Shown: piece after piece, positions 1-16,008 of the stretch
How positions within the stretch are numbered: the first letter of the stretch is position 1
How the letters are laid out: each line of letters starts with the position of its first letter
From: an uncultured Bacteroidales bacterium
Lineage (GTDB): Bacteria; Bacteroidota; Bacteroidia; Bacteroidales; BM520
Direction: 5' to 3'
Length of the DNA stretch: 64,000 nucleotides
Assembly: GCA_964594665.1 (NCBI GenBank)
Contig: CAZQNY010000001.1
Span: forward strand, 77,030-141,029
Notes under the pieces: generated by a model
The model's database searches: none
Told to the model about the DNA's origin: nothing
Seen by the model: only the letters and a program-made list of their open reading frames with translations
Made by a program: the position numbers and the translations under genes

Positions 1-2379
1 TGATATTTCATTCTTCTGCAGGGATATCTCTTTAGTCCTTTTCTTAACAATAGCCTCCAGGTTATCCTTTTCCCGTTGTAATTGCCTGGCACGCCATTTC
101 ACAAATAAATATACCAGAAATATTCCGGCCACCACAAGAGCAATATAAAATGCAAGCGTATTATACCACTCCGGTATTATACGAAATGAAATCATTGCTT
201 CATCACTGATAACCCCGCTGCTGTCCTTCGACTTAACGTGAAATGTATATTGTCCTTTGGGTAAATTACTATATGTTGTAAAAACCTGTGATGTGAAAGC
301 TGTCGGGTATTCATCTCTCCCTTCTAAAAAAGTGGAATACAAAACATCTTGCTCCCGGGTGAACAGGGGAGTGGAATAATAAATCTTCACATCACTCTGA
401 TGCGCCCGTAATTCATACGGATTATGGTCAGGTGACAGATTTCCGCCATTAAAAATCAAACTGTCATTGGATAAAATGCATTTTCGTATATAACATTTCT
501 GTCGATTACCCTCATTCACCGTTTCGGAGGTGTGAATAATAATTTCATTACCTCCCCCTAAAAAGGTTATCCCTGATTCAGCATAAACTGTCTTGATAAT
601 TTTGTTTTCTATAGGTACAAAACGATTCGGATACCCTTTCCATATGGAATCATGACGAACAATATACTGTGCATGTGTTTGATCACCTGCCACTATCCAG
701 ATTGTATCAGGGGTGCTGTTGTAAATACTGCTGATCCAGAAGTCTGAAAGCCATGCACTATCCGATTGTACTGATAATTGATAAAGCTGAAAGCTATTGC
801 TCTCAATATCATATTTATAAACCCCCTGAGGTGTGCTTATATAATACTTTCCTTCGAAAATAAATGCCTTTATCCCGGCAGTGTTTGGTATCCCTGACGG
901 GTTAGATATTGGTGTCAGAGTGTTATTATCCAAAATTTTAAAAATGCTGATATTATCAGATGTACTTTTCGTAATAACAATATTCGAAATACCGCATATT
1001 ATGTCTGCTATTTCTTCATTATCAGAATATTGCAGCTCTATAGCGGATAATTTATTATTTATAATGGAATAAGTTAACAATCCGTTTTCCGTTCCAAGGA
1101 GTAAAACCTTGTCACCGTATATTGCCACTGATAATGAAAAATACCCATTCTCCTTGATTATATTCCCTTGTTCAATATTTAATAAACCAGTAGATGTTGC
1201 AACATACAGATGTCCCCCGTGTTCCACCATGTCCCAACAGGCCATATTTATATCTTTAACAGGAATAAAAGACTTCAGAATGGTATCAAAGCGAAATAAG
1301 CCCTGATAGGTAGCAGCATAATATTCGCCCTGATATTTGGTGATTTTATTTACAATACCTTCAAGCCCTGAACCTTCTGCAAGATACCTGAACGGAGATG
1401 AAATATTTACCGAACAAATACCATTGTCAAGCACGCACCACAAAAGGCCTTTATCTTCAATGATCTTAACCACACCATTGTCGCCTAATCCTTTTTGTCG
1501 GGTTAATTTGTTGGTAATAACACCCTTATTTAAATCAATAAACAGCAAACCGTTTCGAAGAGTACCAAGAACAAGCTCTCCTGATGATGTAATAAGACCA
1601 TCTGAAATAACATATCTTTTCAACTGATCGTTTAATGTTTTGGCAAGAGGTCTGCATTTTCCGCCTTTATCAAACAGCCAAAGCCCCTGACGCGATGTGC
1701 CCAAAATGTATCCATCACGATAAACATTAAAAAACGAATATGTCGTTGCAGCAGGAAGGAGGTCTGTTGGAATAATCCGGTCCGTTTTGCCATTCTCAAG
1801 AACAAATAAGCCTTCCTGATTTATGGAAAGATAAATGTTGCCATTCGCAAGGAAAGCTTTGCTGATAGTGCCTTCAATAATGAATTTATCAGTCAGCTCT
1901 CTGTTTTCTATAGTAAAAACAGTATTCTTTGTTATATAGTAAGTCTTATCTCCGGATACAAAAATCTGTATCACTTCATTATTAGCCTCTGAGTTGTCAG
2001 AAAACAGATTCAGGGATTGGTATTCAGCCCCAAATTCATTCCGGATAATAATGCCTGCTTCTCCGATTCCTCCCACAAAAACGCCCTGGTCATGCGCATA
2101 GGCAATTGCAGTTGCCCTCATGCCCGCATCTGTTTCATACAACTGCCAGGAATTACCATCATATTCGATCGGGCCGGCGAAGTTTGCAAGATAAAGAAAA
2201 TCCCTGTCGTCAAAGCAAAGATCAAAGTTCTGATTATGCGCATGGTAGTCGGCAGGGCCATAATAGGATATGAAAGGTGTTCCGGCAAGGAAAACATCCT
2301 TTGCGTTCTGCCCTGATACAGTTTTCAGACTCAAAAGCCCGAATATCAAAATGACCCATAAAATCTCTTTTTTTGTCAT
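1..2379 (-). CDS. Membrane sensor protein whose C-terminus lies beyond the window edge: signal peptide, two-component-regulator-type beta-propeller repeats, Y_Y_Y-like domain, single TM, coiled coil
   Basis: My own minus-strand translation from the ATG at 2379-2377 gives MTKKEILWVILIFGLLSLKTVSGQNAKDVFLAGTPF... The frame stays open to base 1, so it is absent from the ORF track. The last readable residues are ...IPEWYNTLAFYIALVVAGIFLVYLFVKWRARQLQREKDNLEAIVKKRTKEISLQKNEIS, a TM followed by a coiled coil, as in Bacteroidota propeller/Y_Y_Y sensors. The output domain is off-window. There is an ATGA start/stop overlap with the upstream ORF. Confidence 0.7.
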   Translation of the reverse strand, partial: MTKKEILWVILIFGLLSLKTVSGQNAKDVFLAGTPFISYYGPADYHAHNQNFDLCFDDRDFLYLANFAGPIEYDGNSWQLYETDAGMRATAIAYAHDQGVFVGGIGEAGIIIRNEFGAEYQSLNLFSDNSEANNEVIQIFVSGDKTYYITKNTVFTIENRELTDKFIIEGTISKAFLANGNIYLSINQEGLFVLENGKTDRIIPTDLLPAATTYSFFNVYRDGYILGTSRQGLWLFDKGGKCRPLAKTLNDQLKRYVISDGLITSSGELVLGTLRNGLLFIDLNKGVITNKLTRQKGLGDNGVVKIIEDKGLLWCVLDNGICSVNISSPFRYLAEGSGLEGIVNKITKYQGEYYAATYQGLFRFDTILKSFIPVKDINMACWDMVEHGGHLYVATSTGLLNIEQGNIIKENGYFSLSVAIYGDKVLLLGTENGLLTYSIINNKLSAIELQYSDNEEIADIICGISNIVITKSTSDNISIFKILDNNTLTPISNPSGIPNTAGIKAFIFEGKYYISTPQGVYKYDIESNSFQLYQLSVQSDSAWLSDFWISSIYNSTPDTIWIVAGDQTHAQYIVRHDSIWKGYPNRFVPIENKIIKTVYAESGITFLGGGNEIIIHTSETVNEGNRQKCYIRKCILSNDSLIFNGGNLSPDHNPYELRAHQSDVKIYYSTPLFTREQDVLYSTFLEGRDEYPTAFTSQVFTTYSNLPKGQYTFHVKSKDSSGVISDEAMISFRIIPEWYNTLAFYIALVVAGIFLVYLFVKWRARQLQREKDNLEAIVKKRTKEISLQKNEIS

Positions 2380-5300
2380 GGGGTCTCCGGTTTAAAATAA
2401 AACGAATTTATTGCTTCCATCACCACCGGCCTGTTTGTAGCAAAATTATCAAAAACCGTGGTGTTAAAAATAATAAGCTTAGTTACTGATGGGAATTTAA
2501 AGATCAATGATTCCTCGGCGTTACGCACTGTACTCATGAAAAATCCATTGGGGGCAACATCCAAATAACCGGTACTTGTTACTTTTCCGGATATAACAAA
2601 CCCGTATGCTCTTTTCGAATTTATTGTTGTTGAATCGCCTTCTGAATAACCCTTTCTTACAGATGTTTCAAGTAACTCTTCCATTGCAAAAACAGGAATC
2701 AGGGAAGAATGAAAAGCCGTTGAAACTATCCGAAAGGCATCAAGAAGTAATATTGAGTCCTGAGCATTGATCCGGGAATCAATCTTGTCCTGCCATGCTT
2801 TCGGTAATAGTTCCCTTTTGTGTTTAAATACTTCAGGGTAATATTTGTACAACTGCAGGGTTGCATATTCTGCAACAACGTTTTCAGGATGAAGAAAATT
2901 ACTGATTAACAAGTTTTTATATGAATCGCCCGGGGGATACACAGCCAGTGCTTCGGCCCGTGTATATCCTGACACGGTTTTACCACGTGCATTTATCAAT
3001 TGTTCCATAGCTTCTGTGGCTGATTGCCTCTGATAAAAATAGGGCTCCATATTAGGAGTGAATCTTTTACCAAAGCAATAATTGTCAATTAATGGCATTA
3101 AGAATTCTATGTCGCTTTTGGTGAATATTAAATTCATCATTTCAACAACATACATTTTTGATGCTGAATTACTGTCTTCAATAATATTTGCAATAACAGC
3201 AACAGTGTTTTTATCATAAATTGTGCTTAATAATGCAAAAATGAAATGCATCCGCGAATTGATATCTGTCTTAAGCGTATGTGATAAGTGTATATTCTCA
3301 TCAGAAATTGATTCCATTTCATTTTCAACAGCCATTAAAAAGAATAGGTTTCTGCACTCTGATTCAAACTCCGCATGAAATGATTCCCGGGCACTATTGC
3401 TAATGATTAAGTTGCTTCCGGAAATAATTTCCATCAGCGCTTCTTTTCCATAATAACGACAACTAAAAAACAGTTTTTCAATCAATTCACTTTGCTCATT
3501 CGTGAAATTATGATTTCCGGATAATGCAATTCTGATGGCACCAGGGAGCCTGTCGTTGTGTTGCTTGGCAAGAATACTTTTCAATAAGGAGGTGATGCCT
3601 GAATCTCCATACTGTTTGATAGCGTGTAAACTAAAATTCCTCAGATCCGTCGAAAAAACATTCTGTAAAATTCCCGGAAGAAGCGGAAGCCTGCCAGTTT
3701 TTCCGGCTGCCAGAATACATTCCATTTTTATCTCCTGATCGTCAGACTTCAACAAGTCATTTAAAGCACTATAAGCATTATAATCAAACACCTCCACAAG
3801 TAAAGCAACAGACTGAAGCAGGTCGTTTTTATCTGTTTGTGGTATACGTTTGCGATTATTAAACATCGCGACAACATCTTTATCTGCGGTACCATTGTTT
3901 TTATTGTGGATAAAATCCAAATACGCAATTTTCAGAGGAACCTGCAAACCCGCAGAAATAGCTCCCTGACAAAAGTCCTTATGCTGTGATTCAGGGAGTT
4001 TCACCACGATGGCTGAAAATGAATATGGATTGGTATTGATAATTAAAGCGCCCATATGAAAGAGTATCCTGTCATTATTCGCCTTTATATATGGATTCTT
4101 TGAAAGTACCTTTTCTTCATTCTTGTGTGATTGGGAAAAAAGCTTGTCTTTTACTTTTAATGTGTATTGATGAAAGGTCTTCCGGGAAAGAAAAAACCAG
4201 CCTGTAACAGTTAAAATAAAGAACAGAGTAAGGTGTATAGATGACAGATTTTTGACAGAGGTAAAAAGAATAATAATTAACGCACTGAATATCACTGCAA
4301 ATGTTTTGGAATATCCTTCAATAATGGCCTGTGCCGAGGGCCGCACGTTTTTATCAAGTGGTTGATAAAGAATCTGATATGCCGGGTCATTGATACCGGA
4401 ACGAAGAACCCGTTCAAGGAGTTTTACCAATGCGATAAGTGAGAAAAACAAGCTTCCTGTACCGGAAACTATTCCTACTACTGCCGCCATGGAAAGAACG
4501 ATTAAAAATACAACTGAACTCACTGACAAACTGAATATTAACCCGTAGCGATTCATCATCTTTCCGGATAGCAATGCTTTTGTGATCAGTTCCACCACTG
4601 CACTAAATCCAAAAAATACTCCAAAAAAACCAGCTAATACATCCGCATCATGGAATTTTGCTTTTGATAAATCAAGGAAGATAAAATCAGCAAGATACAT
4701 GACGATAACAGGAACAAAAGCCAGTATAAACATGTATTTAAAATACGTTGTCCTGATAATTTTTTTTGATGAAGATTCGGAACGTTCCCCCTGTTTACGT
4801 TCCTGACCGGAGTTTTCAATTTTGAAGGTCAGAAAGAGACAGAAAAACATACTTGCCGCTGCAATAAACAGTAAATCCTGTGTTTGTAGCACTTTAATAA
4901 GTAAAGGTATAGAGAAGAAACCTATCATACTCGAGATTACTTCTCCGGAAGTAATGAGACCAAACAGACGCTTGCCCTGGTCGAGAGTGAAGGCTCTGTT
5001 CGCCATTGTCCAGAAACCTATTATCGTGATAAATGCAACTACCCTGTACCATACATAGTTCACAAAAATCAACCATCGCGGGGCATTGATATCTACTACC
5101 AATCCCAGCAGAACCATCGAAAGTATTAATAAACTGTTAGAGGTAAGAATGGTATTTCGTACCGAGGTTTTTTTTAACAGCGACTGAAAAAGCAGACTTA
5201 CAGGAATCCCAATACCACCCATGGCCAGATACGCATAGGGTATAATGCTGCTGGGAAAGATTGCAACCAACAAGGCGCTGGAAGAGGTGTAGAACATTGC

Positions 5301-5411
5301 ATTGGTTGTTCCGACAAAAAAAGAATACAACAATAGTAACATCACTGTTTTTCTCTCAGTGGAGGAAACGCCAAATGGCTTCAACAAGAGGTTACTATCT
5401 TTTAAAATCAT
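2376..5411 (-). CDS. TLC/Npt-family (ATP:ADP antiporter-like) nucleotide-transporter membrane domain fused to HEAT repeats and a degenerate cNMP-binding-like C-terminal domain
   Basis: 1011-aa ORF. The first ~430 aa contain about 12 hydrophobic helices with TLC-type signatures (FWTMANRAFTLDQGKRLFGLITSGEVISSMIG; PAYQILYQPLDKNVRPSAQAIIEG). The middle has HEAT/PBS-lyase-like repeats (LLKSDDQEIKMECILAAGKTGRLPLLPGILQNV). The last ~120 aa look like a cNMP-binding beta-barrel (VFAMEELLETSVRKGYSEGDSTTINSKRAYGFVISGKV), but I cannot see the FGE / R[ST]A phosphate-binding cassette. Confidence 0.65.
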   Translation of the reverse strand: MILKDSNLLLKPFGVSSTERKTVMLLLLYSFFVGTTNAMFYTSSSALLVAIFPSSIIPYAYLAMGGIGIPVSLLFQSLLKKTSVRNTILTSNSLLILSMVLLGLVVDINAPRWLIFVNYVWYRVVAFITIIGFWTMANRAFTLDQGKRLFGLITSGEVISSMIGFFSIPLLIKVLQTQDLLFIAAASMFFCLFLTFKIENSGQERKQGERSESSSKKIIRTTYFKYMFILAFVPVIVMYLADFIFLDLSKAKFHDADVLAGFFGVFFGFSAVVELITKALLSGKMMNRYGLIFSLSVSSVVFLIVLSMAAVVGIVSGTGSLFFSLIALVKLLERVLRSGINDPAYQILYQPLDKNVRPSAQAIIEGYSKTFAVIFSALIIILFTSVKNLSSIHLTLFFILTVTGWFFLSRKTFHQYTLKVKDKLFSQSHKNEEKVLSKNPYIKANNDRILFHMGALIINTNPYSFSAIVVKLPESQHKDFCQGAISAGLQVPLKIAYLDFIHNKNNGTADKDVVAMFNNRKRIPQTDKNDLLQSVALLVEVFDYNAYSALNDLLKSDDQEIKMECILAAGKTGRLPLLPGILQNVFSTDLRNFSLHAIKQYGDSGITSLLKSILAKQHNDRLPGAIRIALSGNHNFTNEQSELIEKLFFSCRYYGKEALMEIISGSNLIISNSARESFHAEFESECRNLFFLMAVENEMESISDENIHLSHTLKTDINSRMHFIFALLSTIYDKNTVAVIANIIEDSNSASKMYVVEMMNLIFTKSDIEFLMPLIDNYCFGKRFTPNMEPYFYQRQSATEAMEQLINARGKTVSGYTRAEALAVYPPGDSYKNLLISNFLHPENVVAEYATLQLYKYYPEVFKHKRELLPKAWQDKIDSRINAQDSILLLDAFRIVSTAFHSSLIPVFAMEELLETSVRKGYSEGDSTTINSKRAYGFVISGKVTSTGYLDVAPNGFFMSTVRNAEESLIFKFPSVTKLIIFNTTVFDNFATNRPVVMEAINSFYFKPETP

Positions 5412-5412
5412 A

Positions 5413-6237
5413 CTATTTCTCTATCAACTGATCGTATGGAATTGCAAGGAATGAATGATCGTAATGTCCCTCTTTACGACGTAAATAGGCTGCAATACGA
5501 AAGTCCTCTTCTATGTACATTTTCTGAATTGTGTCCAGATCATTATAGCTTACAATCTGATAATGAACGTTTTGTTTATGCGTTTTAATAAACTCAGCAA
5601 CTTTGACTTTATCCAATCTGTTTAAAATAAACCCCCTGGGAGAGAGTACCATAAATTCATCAAAGCTTGGTTCCCAGTTTTTGTATTGATGGAAGGTTTC
5701 AAAAAACCATCCCATATTATTGAGTTGATTATTAATGCTTGGGAAATTTGAATGACCGATAAGCCCCCTCTGCGTTTTCGAGCCTGTCTCCATGGAAATG
5801 AGCGCAGAAAATGTTAACAATATAAGGGCAAGTCCTTTACCACGAATGTTTTTATGTAAGGCAAAGCGTGTCCCTAAGGCAACATTGCCCCTTGTGCTGT
5901 ATTGTACATGAAATATCGTTCCCATGATATGTCCTTTTTTATCACAAATCAACATACCGTGGCCATAGGTTATACATTTATACAATTCAAAAAAAGTAAC
6001 ATTTGTTGGCATCCCCGATTCTTCATAGCAATCAGCAATCAAAGGGATAAGTTCCTCTATATCACTAAAATCAGCGAGTTTAAAGTGAAGTTCGTGTCTG
6101 GAAAGTTCTTCAATACATTTTTTCTTATAAACAGCCAAAAACTCTGAATCGGTGTATTCCAGTACTTTTCGCTCCTCAACTGTCAAGGTCTTGCATAAAT
6201 ATTCCGGTTTTCTGTATTTCGATAGATCAATAATCAT
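5413..6237 (-). CDS. GNAT-family N-acetyltransferase with a C-terminal extension of about 90 aa
   Basis: 274-aa ORF with ATG at 6237. It has a GNAT motif-A-like HKNIRGKGLALILLTFSAL preceded by GHIMGTIFHVQYS. There is a 1-nt gap to the downstream ORF and a 6-nt gap to the upstream ORF. Confidence 0.6.
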   Translation of the reverse strand: MIIDLSKYRKPEYLCKTLTVEERKVLEYTDSEFLAVYKKKCIEELSRHELHFKLADFSDIEELIPLIADCYEESGMPTNVTFFELYKCITYGHGMLICDKKGHIMGTIFHVQYSTRGNVALGTRFALHKNIRGKGLALILLTFSALISMETGSKTQRGLIGHSNFPSINNQLNNMGWFFETFHQYKNWEPSFDEFMVLSPRGFILNRLDKVKVAEFIKTHKQNVHYQIVSYNDLDTIQKMYIEEDFRIAAYLRRKEGHYDHSFLAIPYDQLIEK

Positions 6238-6243
6238 AAACAG

Positions 6244-8880
6244 CTATTTAAAATTGTATAGTACACGGATTAAAAAATTACGCTTCAGCTGCGGCGTGCG
6301 ATATGCATAAAAGACTCCATCTGCTGAGCGGACTCCGGGGTCAGCATATTCCGTATTTAAAATGTTATTACACCGCAGTTGGATATCGAGGCCATTAACA
6401 GGACTTACCCATGTCGCAGTTGCATTTAACAGAGCTACGGCAGGAAATTCACCCGGATTTGCTACTACAGAAGTGCCTTCTCCTACAGGCCTTTCTCCAA
6501 TAAAATTAACACGTGTATTTATATTTAACTGATCGAAAAGCACCACATTAACACCAAAATTTGCATGATGGGAGGCTATGTCGCCAATTCGCTGATATTC
6601 TCCGGTCAAAACACCGTCCTCCAGTTTATTATTTAAAGGATGACAATAGGTGTAATTGGCATAAACATTTGCATGTTCAAATTGGTAACGGATATTCGCC
6701 TGAATACCACTAATTTGCAACTCGCCAATGGCCTGGTGTTGCTGTGTTAAGCCTCCTTCATAAGGAACAAGAGCCGTTCCGACAACTCCATCATATTCAG
6801 AACGATAAACTTGCAAGTCAGCATAAAATGCTTTTGAAGGATGATATGCAGCACTTAATTCAAGGTTTTTAACTTCCTCCGGCAATAAAGTCGGGTTATT
6901 CAGCTGCCGAATATCTGAAGTGGAATATTTTGTCCAGTTGCTTGCATTTTGAAAGGCTTCAGAATATATGGCCTTAAAAACAAATTTGCCGGGCATGGCA
7001 ACAACTGCGACTCTCGGGTTAAACTGAAAACCATAACCACCGGTGACCCTGATTCTATTGTAATCATATCGTCCACCAAAGGTAAAGAGAACCTTGTCCC
7101 AGGCTTTATAGGTTGCCTGTGCATATATCCCAATGTCATTAACAGTAAAATAATTTCCTCCCGGAGAAGCGCTCTCAGCAGATATTCCCGACTCAACAAT
7201 ACTGGTGGTGTATTCAGATAGATCGCCAAGAAATAATGACTGGTAGTTTCCCTGCAAAACAGTATTCCTGTATTCCAAACCCGCAACCATATTAAACACA
7301 TCCGATGAATATGTCACTTTCAACTCATTACGAAACTGACGGTTGATCACGTAATCGAGACGGGTAGTCCAATATGGTGAAACTGAATCTGCAAGCGAAG
7401 ATGACGATAACCCTCCGTTGGCATAATTCGTTAACCAAATATACGACGATCCGTCAGAAACTTTTGTGATTCGGTATTGAGCAAGATTTGACAAACTGAC
7501 ATGATCTGTAATATCTTTATTGTATTGAGTATAAAAGAAATACTGCTCCGGAATCCAAAATAACTGATTATCAGCACCACATTGCAGATTATCAGTAAAA
7601 TAATTTGTGCTCCCGTTTTTAGCTTTCCACCATTGCATCCCGGCACTAAAATCTCCAATACTAAGTTTTGTATAGGAATAATAGTTATCTATCAAATTTG
7701 AGTAATGTACCGGCGAACCATTTACTGTTTCATTAATCGATGCCTGATCGTATTCCCTTGCTGTCTGTGCTCCAAGTTCAGTAAGTCTTGCTGCAACTGT
7801 ATCACCGGCAGTATTTGTTTCAATATGAAAATACGGGTTATCTGATCCTATATTATTCTCTTTAACAAAATCACCAGCATTGTTGGTTACCGATAATAAA
7901 GAATAGTAATCAACAGCATTATAATCGTCCGGGCTGAAATTGTATTCATCAAAAGAGGATAAATCCCTGTCGGTAGAAGTATATTTTCGAAAAGATGTAG
8001 AGATTGTCAGTTTTTTAAACCTTCCGGCAACAGTAATATCGGTAAACCATGTATTTGCCGAACCAATACCAGCATCTGCTGACACAGCAACAGGGGAGTT
8101 GATTTCAAGGTAATCTCCGGGATCTTTGGTAATAATATTGATAACCCCTGCAAGCGCATTGGCTCCATACATTGTCGAGGCGGGACCATAAATAATCTCT
8201 ATCCGTTTAACCATACTTACCGGATACTGAACACCCCAATACGCAATATTCGACCATAAATCGTTTTCCTCAACGCCATCAACCAAAAACAAGGTCCGGT
8301 CCGTATTACGGCTTCTGTAACCACGTTGATAAATATTACTGTATGTTGCGCCCCTGGTTCTGCTAACATCAAAGCCGGGTAAATCTGAAAAAACAGCATC
8401 CAGATCCGTATACCCTCTGGTTTTTATCTCTTCTGCTGTTACAACAATCACTGTGGCAGGAGTTTCGTTGGAATTCTCAGCCTTCTTGGAAACAGAAACA
8501 ACCTGCTGGGAATAACCTAATTTCTTCAGAATATCAATCATCGTGATAAAACGGGGAGGGTCAAAGTAATTGGCTTCAAAGTTTGGTTTTAACTGAATGA
8601 TACGATCAGCAGTGTTATATGCCTTTTCTATCGAATCTGTGGCAAGGTAACAAAGCGTCATTATTCTGTATGCTTCTATCTTCTCATTATATGAAAAACC
8701 ATCAGCCATGCAATTGTTTATAATATCAGTGGCTTCAAGAAATAATCCAAGATTATATTTCTTCTGTGCTTCATTAAGCGTAAACGAACCACACTGCTGC
8801 CCTGTTGCAGCTTCCCAACATAGCACAAACAGCAAAATTGCCAATACCGATTTTAAATAGATATATTTATTGTTTTTCAT
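6244..8880 (-). CDS. TonB-dependent outer-membrane receptor with a TPR-like N-terminal extension
   Basis: 878-aa ORF. Signal peptide MKNNKYIYLKSVLAILLFVLCWEAATGQ. TonB box and plug (ETPATVIVVTAEEIKTRGYTDLDAVFSDLPGF; RIEIIYGPASTMYGANALAGVINIITK). Long beta-barrel ending LIRVLYNFK. About 100 helical TPR-like residues sit between the signal peptide and the TonB box. Confidence 0.85.
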   Translation of the reverse strand: MKNNKYIYLKSVLAILLFVLCWEAATGQQCGSFTLNEAQKKYNLGLFLEATDIINNCMADGFSYNEKIEAYRIMTLCYLATDSIEKAYNTADRIIQLKPNFEANYFDPPRFITMIDILKKLGYSQQVVSVSKKAENSNETPATVIVVTAEEIKTRGYTDLDAVFSDLPGFDVSRTRGATYSNIYQRGYRSRNTDRTLFLVDGVEENDLWSNIAYWGVQYPVSMVKRIEIIYGPASTMYGANALAGVINIITKDPGDYLEINSPVAVSADAGIGSANTWFTDITVAGRFKKLTISTSFRKYTSTDRDLSSFDEYNFSPDDYNAVDYYSLLSVTNNAGDFVKENNIGSDNPYFHIETNTAGDTVAARLTELGAQTAREYDQASINETVNGSPVHYSNLIDNYYSYTKLSIGDFSAGMQWWKAKNGSTNYFTDNLQCGADNQLFWIPEQYFFYTQYNKDITDHVSLSNLAQYRITKVSDGSSYIWLTNYANGGLSSSSLADSVSPYWTTRLDYVINRQFRNELKVTYSSDVFNMVAGLEYRNTVLQGNYQSLFLGDLSEYTTSIVESGISAESASPGGNYFTVNDIGIYAQATYKAWDKVLFTFGGRYDYNRIRVTGGYGFQFNPRVAVVAMPGKFVFKAIYSEAFQNASNWTKYSTSDIRQLNNPTLLPEEVKNLELSAAYHPSKAFYADLQVYRSEYDGVVGTALVPYEGGLTQQHQAIGELQISGIQANIRYQFEHANVYANYTYCHPLNNKLEDGVLTGEYQRIGDIASHHANFGVNVVLFDQLNINTRVNFIGERPVGEGTSVVANPGEFPAVALLNATATWVSPVNGLDIQLRCNNILNTEYADPGVRSADGVFYAYRTPQLKRNFLIRVLYNFK

Positions 8881-11800
8881 ATTTTTCAGAAATCGTTCTC
8901 ACCACAGGGATGTCTTCTCCAAGATATTCGTTCCACTCTTCTGAAGTTAATTCCCGTTTAATATCATGCTTTATTTTTTTTGCTAATTCTTCTATATCTA
9001 CAGACTGAATAATTATGTTTCTATCCAGTCCTCCGCTAATAATTTTTTTATGTCCTGAATCATATGCCAAAGAAGTAACCCATCCGTCATGATTCTGTAT
9101 TATAACAGGTTGTGATTCCGGGTTCTGTGTGTTCCGGATTTTAATGGTGTTATCTAAACTTCCGGTGGCAAGGTATTTTCCCTGATGAATATATTGGATA
9201 GATGTCACCCGGGAAATATGTGAATCGATTTTTACAGGCTCCGACGATGATGAAGCGCCAAGAAAAACTAATGTGCCATCCTCATAACCTATGGATAAAC
9301 TATTGGTAACAGAATCACAACCAATTGCAGATACAGGCTTCATTACCTTATTATAAAGGTCCTCCACTTCCATTTTAAATGGATCAAAGCGTAAAAACGA
9401 ACCATTATCCAGACCGATAAGATATGCGCTGTGGCAGGTTTTAATAGCAGTGACGTCCGAGTCAAAAGAGTAGAGCAGGGCAGGAGCACTCTCCTGATTT
9501 TGGCTCCATGAATAAATTGCTTTCCCTCCATTAGTAAAAACAATATTATTTTTATCGTCGTACAGAACTTTATTAACCGGATTACCATTAGGTAATGTAA
9601 AAGACGTAACTTCCTGTGTACCATTGTCTATAACAATAATTCCTCCATCTACAGTACCCAGACAGGACGTATTTTCATCATCAGAAATCGCAAAACTTTT
9701 AATATCATAGTACTGCCGGGGGCTGAATACTGTGGTGAGTTGCTCTATTCCCTTTTCGCCAATTTTCCATTTGGCAATAGTACCATCCTTACTGCATGAA
9801 TAAAAAAATGATGATTTCTTCTGGCTGATAGCTACAATTTGATCAGGATGATTTCTTAAAAAGGTTATATTCTTTGAAATATTTGATAATGCATTAAAAA
9901 TATCCGGATCGTAGGGTAGTCCTCCGTTTTCTTTATTTAACCTGTAGGATTGAAGAGCGAGAAGTCGGGGCAAATCATCACTTTGTGATTTATTCATCTG
10001 GTTGGCTTTAACAGAAAGTGCTTTTGCCAATGATAACATCCGCAGTTTAAAGGCCTTTTCTTCATTTTTCTCAGCTATGGTGCGCTGTTCATTTGCAATA
10101 ATTGTTTGCTCAACCGCCTTGGAACGCTGCATATCAGCTTCATCACGGGCAATAATGGCCTCTTTTTGGGAGGCGAGAGCTTTTTCCCGTTCAGTCTCAG
10201 CAATTACTGTTTGACGTTCCGCCACATGTTGTTGCGACAAGGCATATTCACGTTGTGCTTCAGTGATAAGTTTTTGTTGATTGGAAATTTCCCGTTGCTG
10301 ATCGGAAATCCGTGTTTGAATAATTGCCTGTTTCCTTTGTTGCTCTGCCTTTTCTTTTTCAGCCAAAGCAAGATGCTCATTTTCCCGGGCAAGGGCTGCT
10401 GAAGCCTCAGCCTCAAATCTGAGATTCAGCGAAAAGACCAGAAATAATATGGATATCAACGAGGCAAAGCCCAGAAAAACAGAAGTATACCGTGCTCTTC
10501 GTAAATTTCTCTTTTGGCGCTCCTTTTCCAGCATTATCTTTGTATTAAATGCTTGGGAACTTATCTCCAAAAAGTTCATGGCATTCTCAAAAGAAGCATT
10601 GATACGTTCTCCCCAACAGGCATTTGGCTTCATCTTGTCGCGCCATGCCAGGGCAAGATTTAACTCCGGATTCACCCATAAACCACCTTCCCCCTGCTGA
10701 TATAATTGAGCTGAAGCAACCAGGCGTAAATATACGTCTACAGAAGAGCGCTCCTCAAGAACCCATTCGTTTAAACGGCCCCAGATCCGCATGATGCTTT
10801 CATGTGAAATATTAATTGCAGTATCCTCGTTTATCGATACCTGGTAGGGTGGCATCAAAAAAGCACATTCCGGGACTCTGAATTTGTTGATTACTTCCAA
10901 TAGGGTCTGATAATCAGTATTGCATAAATTTATAAGCTCATGTACCGTTGCTGACCTGCGGGTATTTTTTCCGTCATTTGGGTTTACGAGACTCCTGAAA
11001 ACCATACCGGCAATACGCTTTGATTTTTCGTCAGGTAAAGAATTATACACTTCTTCAGCGTGTTGGTTTAATGCAGAGGATACTGTTCCAATTGCCTGAT
11101 AATGAACCTGTGAAATGGGTTCATTATTGGAGCTGTTTCGTTGCCAGTATTCCCACGTTCTCATCAACGCATGTTGCAGTACAGGAAGCTGGTCTTTTTT
11201 TTCCGATACCTCATTTAATAAGATATCAACAAGGTTCTCATCAATCGCCGCTCCAAAATATTCTATGGGTCCTTTGATCGCCGCTCGTTGCTCTTCGCGG
11301 GTCATCTCCGGAACCAAATAGTAACTCTGATTAATAAGATCGTTGAATTCACGGAAATGAGTGCACTCATCAAGGAAGTCTGTGCGCATTGACACAATTG
11401 TTTTTAATGGAATGACATCCTGTTTTTGAGCCTCAATGATATGATTAATAAATGTTGAGTTTCTTTTCTGACTATTCTTGCCGGTGTAACTGAATAATTC
11501 CTCAAATTGGTCAATAATTAAAAATATTCTCTGGGTAGAATTAAACAAAGATTGAATGAATCTCGAAAATGTGCCGTCTTCCTTAGTAAGCAAATCCTGT
11601 AAATTGACTGTTTCTTTGTCAGAAAAACTTTTTGTCGATTTAGAAATAAAGGCATTTACCAGTTCATTTAAAGGATCATTGCCTGGTTTAAATAGTATTG
11701 TAATCCACTCTTCAGCACTATTCATTTCTGGAATGATTCCCGCATTTATCAATGATGATTTTCCGCATCCACTGGCTCCGCTCACAATTACAAAGTTATG

Positions 11801-11920
11801 AGTTGCAAGCATTTCCTTTAATATTGCAACCTGTTTTTTGCGACCATAAAAATACGATGACTCATTTACTGAGTAACTGCGGATTCCCGGGAATGGATTT
11901 AAAGTATTTTTTATTGACAT
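8867..11920 (-). CDS. STAND P-loop NTPase (nSTAND/NACHT-like) - single TM - long coiled coil - WD40 beta-propeller
   Basis: 1017-aa ORF. N-terminus NPFPGIRSYSVNESSYFYGRKKQ. Walker A VSGASGCGKSS, Walker B LIIDQFEELF, then LPVLQHALMRTW and ISHESIMRIWGRLNEWV, which are motifs typical of WD40-linked STAND NTPases. The basic stretch KERQKRNLRRAR is followed by the hydrophobic helix VFLGFASLISILFLVFSLNL. A Q/E/A/R-rich heptad region of ~150 aa follows. The C-terminus has WD40-like blades (SKDGTIAKWKI, GSLDNTIKIRN, GGLDRNIIIQS). It overlaps the downstream receptor gene by 14 nt. Confidence 0.8.
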   Translation of the reverse strand: MSIKNTLNPFPGIRSYSVNESSYFYGRKKQVAILKEMLATHNFVIVSGASGCGKSSLINAGIIPEMNSAEEWITILFKPGNDPLNELVNAFISKSTKSFSDKETVNLQDLLTKEDGTFSRFIQSLFNSTQRIFLIIDQFEELFSYTGKNSQKRNSTFINHIIEAQKQDVIPLKTIVSMRTDFLDECTHFREFNDLINQSYYLVPEMTREEQRAAIKGPIEYFGAAIDENLVDILLNEVSEKKDQLPVLQHALMRTWEYWQRNSSNNEPISQVHYQAIGTVSSALNQHAEEVYNSLPDEKSKRIAGMVFRSLVNPNDGKNTRRSATVHELINLCNTDYQTLLEVINKFRVPECAFLMPPYQVSINEDTAINISHESIMRIWGRLNEWVLEERSSVDVYLRLVASAQLYQQGEGGLWVNPELNLALAWRDKMKPNACWGERINASFENAMNFLEISSQAFNTKIMLEKERQKRNLRRARYTSVFLGFASLISILFLVFSLNLRFEAEASAALARENEHLALAEKEKAEQQRKQAIIQTRISDQQREISNQQKLITEAQREYALSQQHVAERQTVIAETEREKALASQKEAIIARDEADMQRSKAVEQTIIANEQRTIAEKNEEKAFKLRMLSLAKALSVKANQMNKSQSDDLPRLLALQSYRLNKENGGLPYDPDIFNALSNISKNITFLRNHPDQIVAISQKKSSFFYSCSKDGTIAKWKIGEKGIEQLTTVFSPRQYYDIKSFAISDDENTSCLGTVDGGIIVIDNGTQEVTSFTLPNGNPVNKVLYDDKNNIVFTNGGKAIYSWSQNQESAPALLYSFDSDVTAIKTCHSAYLIGLDNGSFLRFDPFKMEVEDLYNKVMKPVSAIGCDSVTNSLSIGYEDGTLVFLGASSSSEPVKIDSHISRVTSIQYIHQGKYLATGSLDNTIKIRNTQNPESQPVIIQNHDGWVTSLAYDSGHKKIISGGLDRNIIIQSVDIEELAKKIKHDIKRELTSEEWNEYLGEDIPVVRTISEKYEKQ

Positions 11921-12104
11921 TGGAGAATATTCATATGATTCCGTATTATTGTTTTTTTTGTATTTTGGTCAATCATATTTCATAATACATGCTAAGGTAC
12001 AAAAAAAAACATCCAGCTACTTTTTTACTGTTTATTTGTTTAATCATTAATTTTTCATTCGTATTACAGTAAAACAAAAGCAAACGACATAATAAAATAA
12101 GCGT

Positions 12105-15100
12105 ATGAATAAAATAGTAAAATTTATTGGCTCTTTAAAATTAGCCGGTATTATATTAATAGTATTATCTGTAGTATTGGCTTTTGCAACATTTATTGAG
12201 AATGATTTTGGTGCTTTGCATGCAAAAAATGTAGTTTACAATACATGGTGGTTCGAGGTGCTTTTGTTTATTCTTGCAATTAACCTCATAGGGTCAATAT
12301 TTTATCTTAAACTGTTTTCAGGTAAAAAATACTCAAGAATAGTCTTTCATATCGCATTTGTATTTATTCTTGCAGGAGGATTCTTTACCAAGCACCTTGC
12401 CATGGAAGGAATGATGCATATCCGGGAAGGTGACTGCTCAGCTGAAGTATTAATGGATCAATCCACTCTTTCCATTGAACTGCAATCTCAGAATTTTAGC
12501 GTCTCTAAATCCTATCCTGCAAATGTTAATGACTTTCAAAAAATCGATGAAATAGACCTCTCTTCAGTAGGAAAAACAAAAATTGACATCTATCATTACC
12601 CTGTTCCTAATGTACCGGTTATTTATGACTCCGAATCAGGAGAACCCACACTGGTCATTATGTTCGCTTCAAAATATCGCTCATTCGCTCTTGGTTTTGT
12701 TGAAGGACAAACAATGATTCTGGATGGCACTGAGATTGGTTTTAATACCGGTTCAGACCAGGGATTGCAATTCATCTACGAAAAAGATTCTCTCTCAATA
12801 GTTTATACCAATGATCTGAGTGTTCGACACATGATGGGAGATGGGGGAGAAGGCATGCTGTTGAAAAAAAATATCCGTCACCCTTTGACGTCATACGCCA
12901 TATATGAAACTGAAGATTTTCGGTTTGTCCTGACTGATTTTAATGCCAACGGAATAATTCGTTATGAACAGGAAAACAGCCCGCAACAAGCTGCTCCTGA
13001 AATGTTATTGGTTGTACAATCCCCCCAGCAGGTTTTATTCTTCCCTGTTCCAAAGTCTGAAGTTGCAATGGATCCAAATGTTTTTATATATAATGATATG
13101 AAAATTAAAGCCACATGGCAGCCGGCAACACTTTCATTGCCTTTCTCTGTCTGTCTGGAAAATTTTCACATAGAACGTTATCCCGGCTCGCAAAGCCCTT
13201 CAGAATACCGGAGTATGGTTACTCTTGACGATCAAAACAAAAATGTCTCCTTCCCATTTGAAATATATATGAATAATATCCTTAAATATAATGGCTATCG
13301 GTTTTATCAGAGTTCCTTTGATCAGGATGAAAAAGGAACAATTTTATCGGTGCGAAAAGACAGAATAGGGACTACACTTACCTATATCGGTTATTTTTTG
13401 ATGATATTTGGTATGCTATGGGCTCTGGTTGATAAAAAAAGCCGTTTCAGAACGCAGCTTAAATCACTGGCATCACAAAAAACCGTAAAAGCTATTCTTT
13501 TTATTGCATTAATTTTCAGTGGAATAACTGTTGCTGCACAGGAAAAGACCATAACCCCTGATAAAGATATTGCCAACCAATTCGGAAAGCTACAGGTATT
13601 GGGCGCTAATGGCCGTCTGATGCCCGTTAATACTCTCACCGATGAAGTATTACGAACCCTCTATGGCAAAAACCATTATAATGGTATGACTTCTGACCAG
13701 GTGATCCTTTCCATGATTGCAAATCCTCAAACATGGATGAATCAGAAAATTCTTAAAGTAAAATTTGAAGATCTTAAACAACGCCTGGGCCTTAATGCTT
13801 CATATGCCTCATTTAATGATATCGTTGATTCTGAAACAGGTAATTACAGACTTAGCAAGGATATAGAAGACGCCTACAATAAAAAAGCCAATTACCGGAC
13901 AAAATACGATCGTGAGGTAATAAAAATTGATGAAAGACTCAATGTGCTTTACCTGATTCTTACCAATCGCTATATAAAACTATATCCGGTAGAGCAGGAG
14001 GGTAGCTCGGTATGGCTCGCATCTTCACATAATCTGACAGGATTATCGCAGCATGATTCCATTTATATTGCCAACACAGAGTCAGAACTGGCAGAAGCAC
14101 TGATGAGCAGAAACAGTGTCAGGGCAACAACCATACTTGAAGACATTAAGCAATTTCAGGTTGCCAATGCCGGATCGGATATTATACCCGAAAGAAAAAT
14201 TAATGCAGAGATATTTTCCAACAAGGTGGATGTATTTAACCGTTTATGGCGCTTTTACAGCCTTTTTGGTTTTTTTATGATTATCGTTTTTATAGTAAAT
14301 GTTGCAAAGCCATTCAAACGGTATAGCTGGATGAGTAAAGTAGGTTTTATTCACCTGGCAGTAGCTTTTGCTATTCATACCGGAGCACTTGGATTACGAT
14401 GGTATATCTCCGGGCATGCTCCCTGGAGTAATGGTTATGAATCTCTCGTTTTTATGGCCTGGTCGGCAATGCTTGCCGGTATATTGTTTTATAAACGTGA
14501 GCCATTTGCACTTTGGTCCACATCAGTGCTGACCGCTATGGTACTAATGGTTGCTCATCTGTCATGGATGAATCCCCAGATATCAAACCTGGTTCCGGTG
14601 CTGAAATCAGTATGGCTGACAATACATGTCTCGGTGATCACCTCAAGTTATGGATTTCTCGGGCTCTCAGCCATTATTGGCTTGTCGGCAATTATCCTTC
14701 AGATTGCTTCAGGTACTACCGTTAAAACGAATATCGACAATGCCATAAACAGATTAACGACCATATCAGAGGTGATTATGATCCCCGGACTATATATGCT
14801 CACAATCGGGACTTTCCTCGGAGCTATTTGGGCAAATGTTTCATGGGGAAGATATTGGGGCTGGGATCCAAAAGAAACATGGGCGCTAATTACAATTTTT
14901 GTTTATTCCTTTGTGATTCATATGAAATATATTCCCGGCCTTAAAAGCAGGTATATCTTCAATGTAATGTCGGTGGTGGCCTTTTTTAGTATTTTAATGA
15001 CCTATTTTGGTGTGAATTATTATTTATCAGGGCTCCATAGCTATGCAGGAGGAGATCCGGTACCAATACCTGTTTGGCTATATTTTGCGATTGGTGGGCT

Positions 15101-15173
15101 TGTTGTACTGTTTGTGACAGGAAATTATATGCATAATGCGTCTAAAAAGAATATTAAACCAGGCAGAAAATAG
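12105..15173 (+). CDS. ccsBA: Fused cytochrome c biogenesis protein CcsBA (ResB-like N-terminal part plus CcsA haem-handling part)
   Basis: 1022-aa ORF. The N-terminal part has TM helices and a large soluble loop (GYRFYQSSFDQDEKGTILSV). The C-terminal polytopic part carries the WWD motif WGRYWGWDPKETWALITIF. Confidence 0.85.
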   Translation: MNKIVKFIGSLKLAGIILIVLSVVLAFATFIENDFGALHAKNVVYNTWWFEVLLFILAINLIGSIFYLKLFSGKKYSRIVFHIAFVFILAGGFFTKHLAMEGMMHIREGDCSAEVLMDQSTLSIELQSQNFSVSKSYPANVNDFQKIDEIDLSSVGKTKIDIYHYPVPNVPVIYDSESGEPTLVIMFASKYRSFALGFVEGQTMILDGTEIGFNTGSDQGLQFIYEKDSLSIVYTNDLSVRHMMGDGGEGMLLKKNIRHPLTSYAIYETEDFRFVLTDFNANGIIRYEQENSPQQAAPEMLLVVQSPQQVLFFPVPKSEVAMDPNVFIYNDMKIKATWQPATLSLPFSVCLENFHIERYPGSQSPSEYRSMVTLDDQNKNVSFPFEIYMNNILKYNGYRFYQSSFDQDEKGTILSVRKDRIGTTLTYIGYFLMIFGMLWALVDKKSRFRTQLKSLASQKTVKAILFIALIFSGITVAAQEKTITPDKDIANQFGKLQVLGANGRLMPVNTLTDEVLRTLYGKNHYNGMTSDQVILSMIANPQTWMNQKILKVKFEDLKQRLGLNASYASFNDIVDSETGNYRLSKDIEDAYNKKANYRTKYDREVIKIDERLNVLYLILTNRYIKLYPVEQEGSSVWLASSHNLTGLSQHDSIYIANTESELAEALMSRNSVRATTILEDIKQFQVANAGSDIIPERKINAEIFSNKVDVFNRLWRFYSLFGFFMIIVFIVNVAKPFKRYSWMSKVGFIHLAVAFAIHTGALGLRWYISGHAPWSNGYESLVFMAWSAMLAGILFYKREPFALWSTSVLTAMVLMVAHLSWMNPQISNLVPVLKSVWLTIHVSVITSSYGFLGLSAIIGLSAIILQIASGTTVKTNIDNAINRLTTISEVIMIPGLYMLTIGTFLGAIWANVSWGRYWGWDPKETWALITIFVYSFVIHMKYIPGLKSRYIFNVMSVVAFFSILMTYFGVNYYLSGLHSYAGGDPVPIPVWLYFAIGGLVVLFVTGNYMHNASKKNIKPGRK

Positions 15174-15216
15174 AAAGCAGCTGAAATAATTATTAGTTTT
15201 GAAAAAACATTATAAA

Positions 15217-16008
15217 ATGAATCTACGATATCTCCTGGTGACAGGGTTGTCAGTATTTCTGCTGGTTATTTCTGCCAGGGCCCAGGATGTTAATGTATAC
15301 AACGATGATGAAGGCTCAAAATCCTTTATCGCAGCGGGAGGGGGTTTAAGTATTCCTGCCGGATTATATGGCTCCTCAGGTACTGGAAGTGATGGCTTTG
15401 CCCTCCCGGGCGTCGGTGTATTTGCCGAAGGAGCAAAATTCAGTCGCTTTTTTGGGTTTGGAATACGTGCAGGATATAACCGTCATTTTATGAATATCTC
15501 CGATTTTCAGGAATATTCATTCGGCGGAATACCTGAAGATGCCACCTTCTCGGCCGATGTTTCAGGCAATTACACCATTATCACTGCAATGGCCGGCATT
15601 TACACAACAATGAGCCTCTTCCCATGGCTTCAGATAAATGGAAAAGCACTCTATGGACCCCATTTTATTTCCATACCCGAATTCAGCTTTTCTTATTACA
15701 ATGAATATGAATTTCAGGGCCAAACATTAATCGATGACTGGAAAGAAGAACATTATGCTGCAAACGACTGGCAGTTTGGATACATGATTGGACTTGGAGC
15801 CAGAATAAAACCCTCCAGCGACTGGAGCCTGAATATTGGCTGGGATTATTCTGAATCTAATCAATCGGTCGCTTATACTTCCAACGAATCAGGAATATTA
15901 CACGATGAAATAGGAAACCCACAGGTGGGACTGGGTGAGCAGCAACATTTTTTTAATATGAAATTTCGCTATATGGTTGTCTCTGCCGGAATAAGCATCT
16001 TTCTTTAA
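15217..16008 (+). CDS. Outer-membrane beta-barrel (porin-family) protein
   Basis: The ORF track starts at a TTG (15199); the first ATG gives MNLRYLLVTGLSVFLLVISARAQD, a signal peptide. The protein shows an alternating aromatic/Gly-rich beta-strand pattern and a hydrophobic C-terminus (VVSAGISIFL). Confidence 0.6.
   Translation: MNLRYLLVTGLSVFLLVISARAQDVNVYNDDEGSKSFIAAGGGLSIPAGLYGSSGTGSDGFALPGVGVFAEGAKFSRFFGFGIRAGYNRHFMNISDFQEYSFGGIPEDATFSADVSGNYTIITAMAGIYTTMSLFPWLQINGKALYGPHFISIPEFSFSYYNEYEFQGQTLIDDWKEEHYAANDWQFGYMIGLGARIKPSSDWSLNIGWDYSESNQSVAYTSNESGILHDEIGNPQVGLGEQQHFFNMKFRYMVVSAGISIFL

Follow-up and report, generated by a model that had tools for sequence, protein, structure and literature searches.

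The 64,000-nt stretch analyzed here (the window) comes from an uncultured Bacteroidales bacterium of the GTDB lineage BM520 (assembly GCA_964594665.1, contig CAZQNY010000001.1, positions 77,030 to 141,029 of the forward strand). At its left end, on the minus strand, it carries a gene cassette in which a membrane-anchored STAND nucleoside triphosphatase (NTPase) is followed by a TonB-dependent receptor, a GNAT-fold enzyme, an NTT-like transporter with HEAT repeats and a cyclic-nucleotide-binding (CNB)-like domain, and a propeller/Y_Y_Y sensor kinase. The order STAND, receptor, enzyme, transporter, Y_Y_Y sensor kinase is conserved across distant relatives. We read the cassette as an envelope-spanning uptake-and-sense locus whose output would be a partner-switching cascade of the RsbU/V/W type, and we put the probability of this reading at roughly 45%. 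The gene content, the domain families, the order and spacing, a variable enzyme slot, a His-to-Asp change in the sensor kinase and the partner-switch genes of relatives, on which the reading draws, are all seen directly.

Gene order and conservation of the cassette

An open reading frame (ORF) map confirms five minus-strand ORFs at 8867-11920 (1017 aa), 6244-8880 (878 aa), 5413-6237 (274 aa), 2376-5411 (1011 aa) and 1-2379, the last of which is open at the left edge of the window. The junction sequences reveal a 14-nt overlap between the STAND and receptor genes (ATG at 8878-8880, TAA at 8867-8869), a 6-nt gap between the receptor and GNAT genes, a 1-nt gap between the GNAT and transporter genes, and an ATGA overlap between the transporter and kinase genes, and no gap between cassette genes in the window exceeds 6 nt. 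These are exactly the five genes and four junctions (-14, +6, +1 and -4 ATGA) described in a first-pass annotation made from the sequence alone.

To follow the cassette into other organisms, one genome per GTDB species was scanned with an alignment of the transporter. A relative was found in 452 species, and the best 80 loci were analyzed by six-frame ORF calling and phmmer, with denominators that count the loci with enough flank. Seen from the transporter, 67/68 loci have the receptor upstream on the same strand and 61/61 have the STAND gene upstream, and the sensor kinase is directly downstream in 64/68, with median gaps of 9 and 6 nt in these cassettes. A reciprocal scan of metagenome contigs, which used an alignment of the receptor extension and plug, places STAND upstream of the receptor in 62 of 63 loci and the transporter downstream of it in 48 of 53. 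Identity to the window proteins is 27% for the transporter, 29% for GNAT, 32% for the kinase, 38% for STAND, 42% for the receptor and 59% for the PP2C protein described below, and the genes that flank the cassettes vary from locus to locus. The adjacency, found again in some 60 or more species whose proteins are 27-42% identical, is not due to chance. Homologues are clearly syntenic in related genomes, and this conserved synteny upholds the single unit proposed in the first-pass annotation; its count of five genes was too low. On L001, a 164-kb ENA metagenome scaffold with identical sequence that served as the source for genes to the left of the window (L numbers designate loci throughout), the same strand continues with a 275-aa histidine kinase (HK2) and then a 388-aa protein of Response_reg-SpoIIE (PP2C) architecture, after which comes a convergent acyltransferase gene. 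Because the HK2 and response regulator (RR)-SpoIIE genes lie on the same strand past the left edge of the window, the cluster comprises at least seven genes.

The same counts bear on the idea that the genes have no joint function at all and are two or three separate units, unrelated but travelling together (receptor with STAND, for instance, and transporter with kinase). Cassette variants that lack the transporter or the enzyme would fit such co-travelling, as would the occurrence of STAND paralogues and distant GNAT-like proteins in other contexts. However, from Bacteroidota to Ignavibacteria/Kapabacteria and a Chitinispirillaceae metagenome-assembled genome (MAG), the genes retain their order, their strand and a spacing near zero at 27-42% identity while the flanks change, and we regard this as the least probable of the explanations considered.

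Most carriers belong to Bacteroidota (Bacteroidales, Prolixibacteraceae, Lentimicrobiaceae, Mucilaginibacter, Arundinibacter and Runella), with further examples in Ignavibacteria/Kapabacteria and the one Chitinispirillaceae MAG. A few carrier MAGs bear the labels of other phyla, for which we suspect mis-binning. Cultured carriers include Runella rosea, Mucilaginibacter aquatilis, M. terrae and Arundinibacter roseus.

The STAND NTPase and its receptor

The 1017-aa STAND protein (8867-11920, minus strand, as are all of its parts) combines an nSTAND1 NOD, a single transmembrane helix, a long Ala-zipper helix and a seven-bladed WD40 propeller, as judged from its match to PF20703, its motifs and an AlphaFold2 (AF2) model. 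The nSTAND1 profile scores 300.1 bits against a cut-off of 27.1 over residues 9-410, and these Pfam coordinates place the NOD module, predicted to be cytoplasmic, at 10691-11896; WD40 repeats are matched as well. The Walker A (GASGCGKSS) and Walker B (IIDQFEE) motifs are intact, and Walker A is kept in 59 of 60 STAND orthologues. Pfam finds no effector or effector-associated domain on the protein, and an N-terminal effector is absent because the nSTAND1 match starts at residue 9, in agreement with the first-pass annotation, which had seen no fused effector. The transmembrane helix, residues 480-498 (10427-10483; hydropathy 2.41), is flanked by seven K/R residues on its N-side versus two on its C-side, and a single transmembrane helix with K/R on the N-side is found in 56 of 60 orthologues. 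In the AF2 model (pLDDT 82), one unbroken helix runs through residues 444-645 and the propeller contains 28 strands. The portion beyond the membrane, a helix/coiled coil of residues 499-645 (9986-10426) that is predicted to be periplasmic, comprises 147 residues and would measure ∼22 nm if straight. The propeller itself, residues 685-973 (9002-9868), is likewise predicted to be periplasmic, and Foldseek matches it to G-beta/WD40 chains with E about 1e-18.

The STAND orthologues are 37-41% identical and are named only "hypothetical" or "WD40 repeat protein" in databases. Across 40 of them, column conservation is 0.83 in the transmembrane helix, 0.75 in the coiled coil, 0.70 in the NOD and 0.50 in WD40, so that the membrane segment is the most conserved and the propeller the least. 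That the transmembrane helix and coiled coil are better conserved than either the NOD or WD40 suggests that they make specific contacts. Along the helix an invariant Ala recurs every seven residues (567, 574, ... 616), and this heptad pattern within 9986-10483 is unusual for a simple anchor or spacer. In a sister sample assembly (L004:2424-2435), 10 nt replace the 41 nt at 9341-9381 within the STAND WD40 region and split the gene, which could reflect either strain-level disruption or an assembly artefact. Outside the cassettes, two hypothetical proteins of roughly 1013-1048 aa are encoded in tandem on plasmid pPP2 of Persicobacter psychrovividus (L096:10801-17000). Their genes divide a contractile-injection-system cluster (sheath, baseplate, PAAR, tape measure) into two halves and have no TonB receptor gene in their vicinity; tblastn aligns the window STAND, at 30% identity, with the second of the two (13959-17000).

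The 878-aa receptor (6244-8880, minus strand) is composed of a signal peptide, an N-terminal extension, a plug (PF07715, 78.3 bits) and a barrel (PF00593, 93.5 bits). The extension, about residues 27-130 (8491-8802, minus strand), appears helical and contains a motif, C..D..L.EA.K.Y..G.F....C, that is conserved across receptor orthologues together with its two Cys residues. Its matches to TPR repeats are weak (PDB E 1.7e-3; Pfam TPR_14/19/2 in 4-5 of 34 members), and the label "TPR-like" is weakly supported. The single-pass topology of STAND and the signal peptide and Cys pair of the receptor extension fit the compartments assigned in the first-pass annotation. The topology predicted here follows from the positive-inside rule, the signal peptides and the conserved Cys pair.

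The first-pass annotation had offered a surface-signaling pathway of the FecA/FecR kind as one of two hypotheses. Surface signaling is the better of the two, as it fits the sensor kinase, the RR-PP2C protein and the RsbV/RsbW-like genes described below; the resemblance to Fec stops short of the mechanism. Like FecA-FecR-FecI and the Bacteroides SusC-like/anti-sigma/extracytoplasmic function (ECF)-sigma pairs, the cassette couples a receptor bearing an extra, predicted periplasmic N-terminal domain to an adjoining single-pass inner-membrane protein whose C-terminal part would be periplasmic and whose output would be cytoplasmic. However, the receptor extension is helical, TPR-like and bears a Cys pair in place of an STN domain, which Pfam does not find in the receptor. 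The partner is a STAND protein with a coiled coil and WD40 propeller instead of an anti-sigma factor of the FecR type, and a two-component system with PP2C takes the place of an ECF sigma factor. Because there is no sigma or anti-sigma gene among the conserved neighbors of the cassette and no STN domain in the receptor, this is not a Fec-type system.

It is possible, though on balance we doubt it, that the STAND protein is itself a trans-envelope transducer. Its periplasmic WD40 propeller, carried on the ∼22-nm Ala-zipper helix, would dock on the receptor extension, and switching of the NOD would couple outer-membrane events to the NTT/HEAT protein and the kinase/PP2C cascade, which would constitute a new class of cell-surface signaling. 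If true, this would be the first STAND protein for which sensing outside the cytoplasm, in partnership with an outer-membrane transporter, had been shown. The same parts could be imagined to do mechanical work, with STAND energizing or gating the receptor through its periplasm-spanning helix and WD40, instead of or beside TonB-ExbBD, and with the other genes serving uptake and regulation. Such gating would agree with an invariant, translationally coupled STAND-receptor core (61/61 and 62/63; overlap or 9-nt median gap), with a modeled helix long enough to cross the periplasm and with the high conservation of the transmembrane helix and coiled coil. It is nonetheless without precedent, STAND proteins are switches and not motors, and the receptor has a plug and a normal barrel, with a possible TonB-box-like strand; we consider it highly improbable.

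The enzyme slot and the transporter

One same-strand gene is nearly always present between the receptor and the transporter, and its family varies among loci. The occupant in the window, a 274-aa protein (5413-6237, minus strand), is a borderline GNAT in Pfam (20.1 bits versus a cut-off of 20.7). Its AF2 model has a pLDDT of 94.8, and the top Foldseek matches are phosphinothricin/methionine-sulfoximine (MSO) N-acetyltransferases, Naa10, RimI and SpeG (E about 1e-8), with TM scores (target) of 0.6-0.8 for many GNATs. The acetyl-CoA pyrophosphate-binding motif [QR]-x-x-G-x-[GA] reads RGKGLA at residues 132-137. As modeled, the protein is a GNAT fold, and acetyltransferase-like activity is predicted. 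An exhaustive HMMER search of 1.84 billion representatives extends the family to about 104 clusters, where a word-indexed search gave 3 relatives; distant GNAT-like proteins are found in other contexts too.

Elsewhere, the commonest slot type is an Fmt/ArnA-like formyltransferase in which the N-x-H...D motif is kept. Other loci contain a short FeeM-like GNAT, a UbiE-like methyltransferase, an isopropylmalate/homocitrate-synthase-like (IPMS-like) enzyme, accompanied by a 225-aa protein or fused to a methyltransferase and accompanied by a P-loop protein, or an Asp/Glu racemase with a 205-aa protein (examples of the slot: window 5413-6237; L010:9086-9985; L022:9084-9989; L032:9125-9952; L021:9383-9958; L059:8058-9958; L081:6046-9146; L151:10334-11643). 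The first-pass annotation was right about the GNAT fold, but a role for GNAT as a fixed, protein-acetylating output is ruled out, since the slot is interchangeable and sometimes empty. Substrates that resemble amino acids or bear an amine are loosely suggested by the slot occupants and by the nearest folds of GNAT, those of amino-acid and amine N-acetyltransferases. At one locus among about 160 (L089:5983-7036; Logan SRR11734692), the cassette includes a GTA_holin_3TM gene and a GTA-type endolysin gene (BgtA-like, E 4e-39), placed between the GNAT-like and NTT-HEAT-cNBD genes.

The next protein (1011 aa; 2376-5411, minus strand) is assigned by homology and a family profile as an NTT-like transporter of the MFS clan with HEAT repeats and a C-terminal CNB-like domain. 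Its membrane domain, residues 1-410 (4182-5411, minus strand), contains about 10 hydrophobic helices within residues 46-407. Taken alone, the window protein is below threshold (MFS_1 25.2 bits against a cut-off of 33.4; HEAT_2 18.6 bits), and its membrane domain alone has no meaningful match in the PDB, and none to NTT. The family profile matches the plastid NTT1 structures 9j3n/9j3j (E about 5e-15), alphaRep/HEAT chains (E 1e-32) and, over the CNB-like domain at about residues 870-1011 (2379-2804, minus strand), the CNB domains of PKG/PKA-R (E about 1e-13). Full-length homologues carry PF03219 (TLC), HEAT and PF00027, with E about 1e-65 and 88-89% of the query aligned. Profile searches confirmed the families named in the first-pass annotation for the STAND protein (nSTAND1/WD40), the receptor (plug/barrel) and the sensor (Y_Y_Y), with a weak result for the TPR-like extension and a match for the transporter only by way of its family profile. 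Membership of this family points to nucleotides as possible substrates, and transport activity is predicted. The start of the gene differs between gene calls (5343-5411), which yield 988 or 1011 aa, 23 codons apart; the longer form, with its ATG at 5409-5411 and the 1-nt gap, is supported because the family alignment has an invariant E18 that the alternative start would exclude.

The cyclic nucleotide monophosphate (cNMP)-binding-like module of the first-pass annotation is borne out at the level of the fold, but its phosphate-binding cassette is missing. The motif G[ED]..R[ST]A is found in 0/76 cassette transporters and is absent from the window protein too, and non-cassette relatives retain GEMAILDGEPRSA-type phosphate-binding motifs. 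Binding of cAMP or cGMP by the cassette CNB-like domain is doubtful because the phosphate-binding cassette has been lost in this clade. The accessible part of Major, Embley and Williams 2017 (PMC5381601) treats NTT-HEAT(-cNBD) fusions as an uncharacterised family. The window protein shares their three-part architecture and direct full-length homology, whereas the cassette clade is very divergent and has lost the cNMP phosphate-binding cassette; a fixed gene neighborhood is not mentioned in that part of the paper. In two variants the STAND, receptor and GNAT-like genes are kept and the transporter is replaced, by TrmO_N-like, GT2-TPR and methyltransferase genes in L108:6346-15812 and by a PAP2 phosphatase gene in L091:1-2839.

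An interchangeable tailoring enzyme that adjoins a transporter and a receptor could also belong to a producer of its own signal. The product of the slot enzyme would be an acylated, formylated or methylated compound that is exported by the NTT-like protein, re-imported by the receptor and measured by the sensor kinase, with quorum- or siderophore-like logic and lineage-specific chemistry. The transporter (27%) and the enzyme (29%) evolve fastest, compared with 59% for PP2C, as expected of specificity determinants. Against this, a single enzyme is too little for a biosynthetic pathway, neither a synthetase nor a hydroxylase nor a precursor peptide is conserved in the cassette, and 11 cassettes lack the enzyme altogether, so we think it quite unlikely. 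Biosynthesis of a siderophore or of a ribosomally synthesized and post-translationally modified peptide (RiPP) is ruled out, as the cassette has no conserved synthetase, hydroxylase or precursor ORF and the gaps in the window are at most 6 nt.

Sensor kinases, partner switching and the working of the cassette

The ORF at 1-2379 (minus strand) covers residues 1-793 of a 1239-aa sensor kinase, with a predicted periplasmic propeller, a Y_Y_Y domain (37.9 bits) and transmembrane helices at residues 5-23 and 742-760. The full-length protein on L001 (13859-17578) contains Y_Y_Y and HATPase_c (72.5 bits) and no receiver or helix-turn-helix domain. The propeller sensor named in the first-pass annotation is supported by the Y_Y_Y match; its phospho-acceptor His, however, is lost, as the H-box reads GIVDR, with Asp in place of His. 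HK2 (275 aa, HisKA/HATPase_c, soluble; L001:17604-18431) retains the residue in GIMHE. Where HK2 lies downstream (the window lineage, L009, L030 and L032), the sensor kinase reads GIVDR and HK2 reads G-I-x-H-E, and in loci without HK2 the propeller sensor kinase keeps the H-box His. To judge from these motifs, the His-less sensor and HK2 look like a pseudo-kinase/kinase pair.

The RR-SpoIIE protein on the window's contig scores 173 bits. At least one partner-switch gene (PP2C, STAS or RsbW-like) is present in 31 of 49 fully flanked loci. In Runella rosea HYN0085, the cassette is carried by an 88-kb plasmid. Upstream of it on the same strand are genes for STAS, "anti-sigma factor antagonist" and a 141-aa RsbW-like "ATP-binding protein", and the one-strand order is STAS, RsbW-like, STAND, receptor, GNAT, "MFS transporter", sensor kinase, "ATP-binding protein" and SpoIIE phosphatase. 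A STAS and RsbW-like pair lies directly upstream of STAND in L009, L013, L032, L051 and L075 as well. Partner switching of the RsbU/RsbV/RsbW type with response-regulator-PP2C input operates in, for example, Pseudomonas HsbR/HsbA and Shewanella CrsR. The cassette resembles these systems in having a Response_reg-SpoIIE protein fed by histidine kinases, with adjacent STAS and RsbW-like genes in many relatives; its input side (STAND, TonB receptor, NTT-HEAT protein and slot enzyme) has no counterpart there, and the window locus is without STAS and RsbW genes.

Two further proteins accompany the cassettes of relatives. One, of ∼199 aa with a signal peptide, an aromatic C-terminus and no Pfam match, follows the sensor kinase in 40 loci (L009:17872-18444, L010:16782-17381) and may be a small outer-membrane barrel. 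The other, of 403 aa with an N-terminal STAS domain and a ∼290-aa C-terminal domain, occurs in 15 loci (L061:809-2020, L062:19962-21209), where it accompanies divergently placed HK2 and RR-PP2C genes, mostly in Fmt-type cassettes. Hidden Markov models (HMMs) of the 199-aa secreted protein, the 403-aa STAS protein and the Fmt-like enzyme match nothing in the window.

Bacteroides polysaccharide utilisation loci with Y_Y_Y hybrid sensors follow a parallel logic, in that a receptor, an MFS-clan inner-membrane permease, a cytoplasmic enzyme and a propeller/Y_Y_Y sensor occur together, and the receptor, permease and enzyme vary. The cassette differs in that it has no SusD partner and its receptor is not of the SusC type, while the sensor has no fused receiver or AraC domain and, in the window lineage, no acceptor His. 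Its enzymes are acyl-, formyl- and methyl-transferases, synthases and a racemase instead of glycoside hydrolases, and it adds the STAND and NTT/HEAT/CNB-like proteins.

In the working that we propose, topology, physical contacts, transport direction, ligand class and regulatory target are what we infer. The TonB-dependent receptor would bring a small ligand, which probably resembles an amino acid or a nucleotide, into the periplasm. The periplasm would be read by two inner-membrane proteins, the propeller/Y_Y_Y sensor kinase and STAND, and the ∼22-nm STAND helix could bring WD40 up to the TPR-like extension of the receptor. The NTT-like/HEAT/CNB-like protein would carry the ligand across the inner membrane or report on it, and the slot enzyme, GNAT in the window, would cap or convert it chemically in the cytoplasm. 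Because the acceptor His is lost in the window lineage, the sensor kinase would act through the His-bearing HK2, which would phosphorylate the response-regulator/PP2C phosphatase, and the phosphatase would in turn reset a STAS-domain antagonist. STAND would serve as a nucleotide-dependent switch that conveys the state of the receptor or periplasm to cytoplasmic components.

Upstream of the cassette, the ORF map and sequence leave one sizeable spacer, a divergent intergenic region of 184 nt (11921-12104, no strand assigned) that is the probable promoter region. Its best sigma-70-like match lies on the minus strand at 11972-11945 (10/12). The promoter and terminator scan as a whole did not rise above chance, and it is poorly suited because Bacteroidota promoters lie outside its model; the spacer has no Rfam match. 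The divergent stretch at 12105-16008 encodes a 1022-aa ResB-like/CcsB fusion (cytochrome c biogenesis), followed by a gene for a ∼269-aa outer-membrane beta-barrel protein. Altogether, the flanks of the cassette are housekeeping genes (cytochrome c biogenesis, YkuD, PdxB-like).

These flanks bear on the second hypothesis of the first-pass annotation, that of an envelope-surveillance defense module, in which STAND would respond to an invader or an attack, sensed at the receptor or within the periplasm, by triggering a harmful output such as leakage of nucleotides through the NTT-like protein, modification by the enzyme, or lysis. The hypothesis gains little here. No PADLOC model matches any of the 7 cassette proteins, the phage collection contains no match to the transporter, and the flanks are these housekeeping genes instead of defense islands. 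STAND carries neither an effector nor an effector-associated domain, the slot enzymes are biosynthetic-type transferases and not nucleases, proteases or TIR domains, and a two-component system with PP2C/STAS/RsbW is typical regulatory wiring. What speaks for defense is that the nSTAND1 clade was defined in conflict systems (PMC8195603), that the enzyme slot is variable and WD40 is the least conserved STAND domain, that the distribution is patchy, with a location on the 88-kb plasmid in Runella rosea, and that STAND paralogues lie beside a contractile injection system in Persicobacter. A rare variant with GTA-type holin and endolysin genes within the cassette keeps the hypothesis in play, but it is just one locus in about 160. 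With the nSTAND1/Avs-type conflict systems (Kaur et al. 2020/2021; PMC13581612), the cassette STAND shares the nSTAND1 NOD, intact Walker motifs and a C-terminal WD40 domain; it differs from them in its lack of an effector, in a transmembrane helix that puts the predicted sensor outside the cytoplasm, in its obligate pairing with a TonB receptor and in the absence of a PADLOC match. On this evidence we judge a defense function unlikely.

Several findings weigh against our preferred reading of an uptake-and-sense locus with partner-switching output. No ligand can be named, as the receptor stays below the cut-off of every substrate-specific NCBIfam model and a riboswitch search of the window and six related loci found none. 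The slot is empty in 11 metagenome loci and some cassette variants do not have the transporter, so neither the transporter nor the enzyme is indispensable. No partner-switch gene lies within 10 kb in 18 of the 49 full loci, and HMMs of the small STAS and RsbW-like families find none in the window. Finally, the other known nSTAND1 proteins come from conflict systems (PMC8195603), and a STAND paralogue ∼30% identical to that of the window belongs to a contractile-injection-system cluster that has no receptor.

The pieces of the cassette are known families, and the NTT-HEAT fusion has been noted before, though not in this context in the accessible part of PMC5381601. Full-text literature searches found no description of the STAND-TonB-receptor pairing or of the cassette, the term "TonB" is absent from the text of the main STAND papers and from that of PMC10907252, and databases give the proteins only generic names ("hypothetical protein", "WD40 repeat protein", "MFS transporter"); the gene set thus appears undescribed, as the first-pass annotation had supposed. 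So far, STAND/NLR-type NTPases have been investigated almost exclusively in the role of cytoplasmic immune sensor or transcription regulator. In the cassette, a membrane-anchored STAND clade, with a repeat sensor predicted to be periplasmic, is locked to a TonB receptor that has its own novel extension in more than 120 independent loci. The cassette also provides the first genomic context for the NTT-HEAT-CNB family, uncharacterised since 2017, and it offers a natural pseudo-kinase/kinase pair and an enzyme "specificity slot" that may point to the ligand class. The cultured carriers make these questions directly testable. If STAND and the receptor communicate, the cassette would represent a third solution to envelope signaling, beside Fec-type anti-sigma factors and hybrid two-component sensors.

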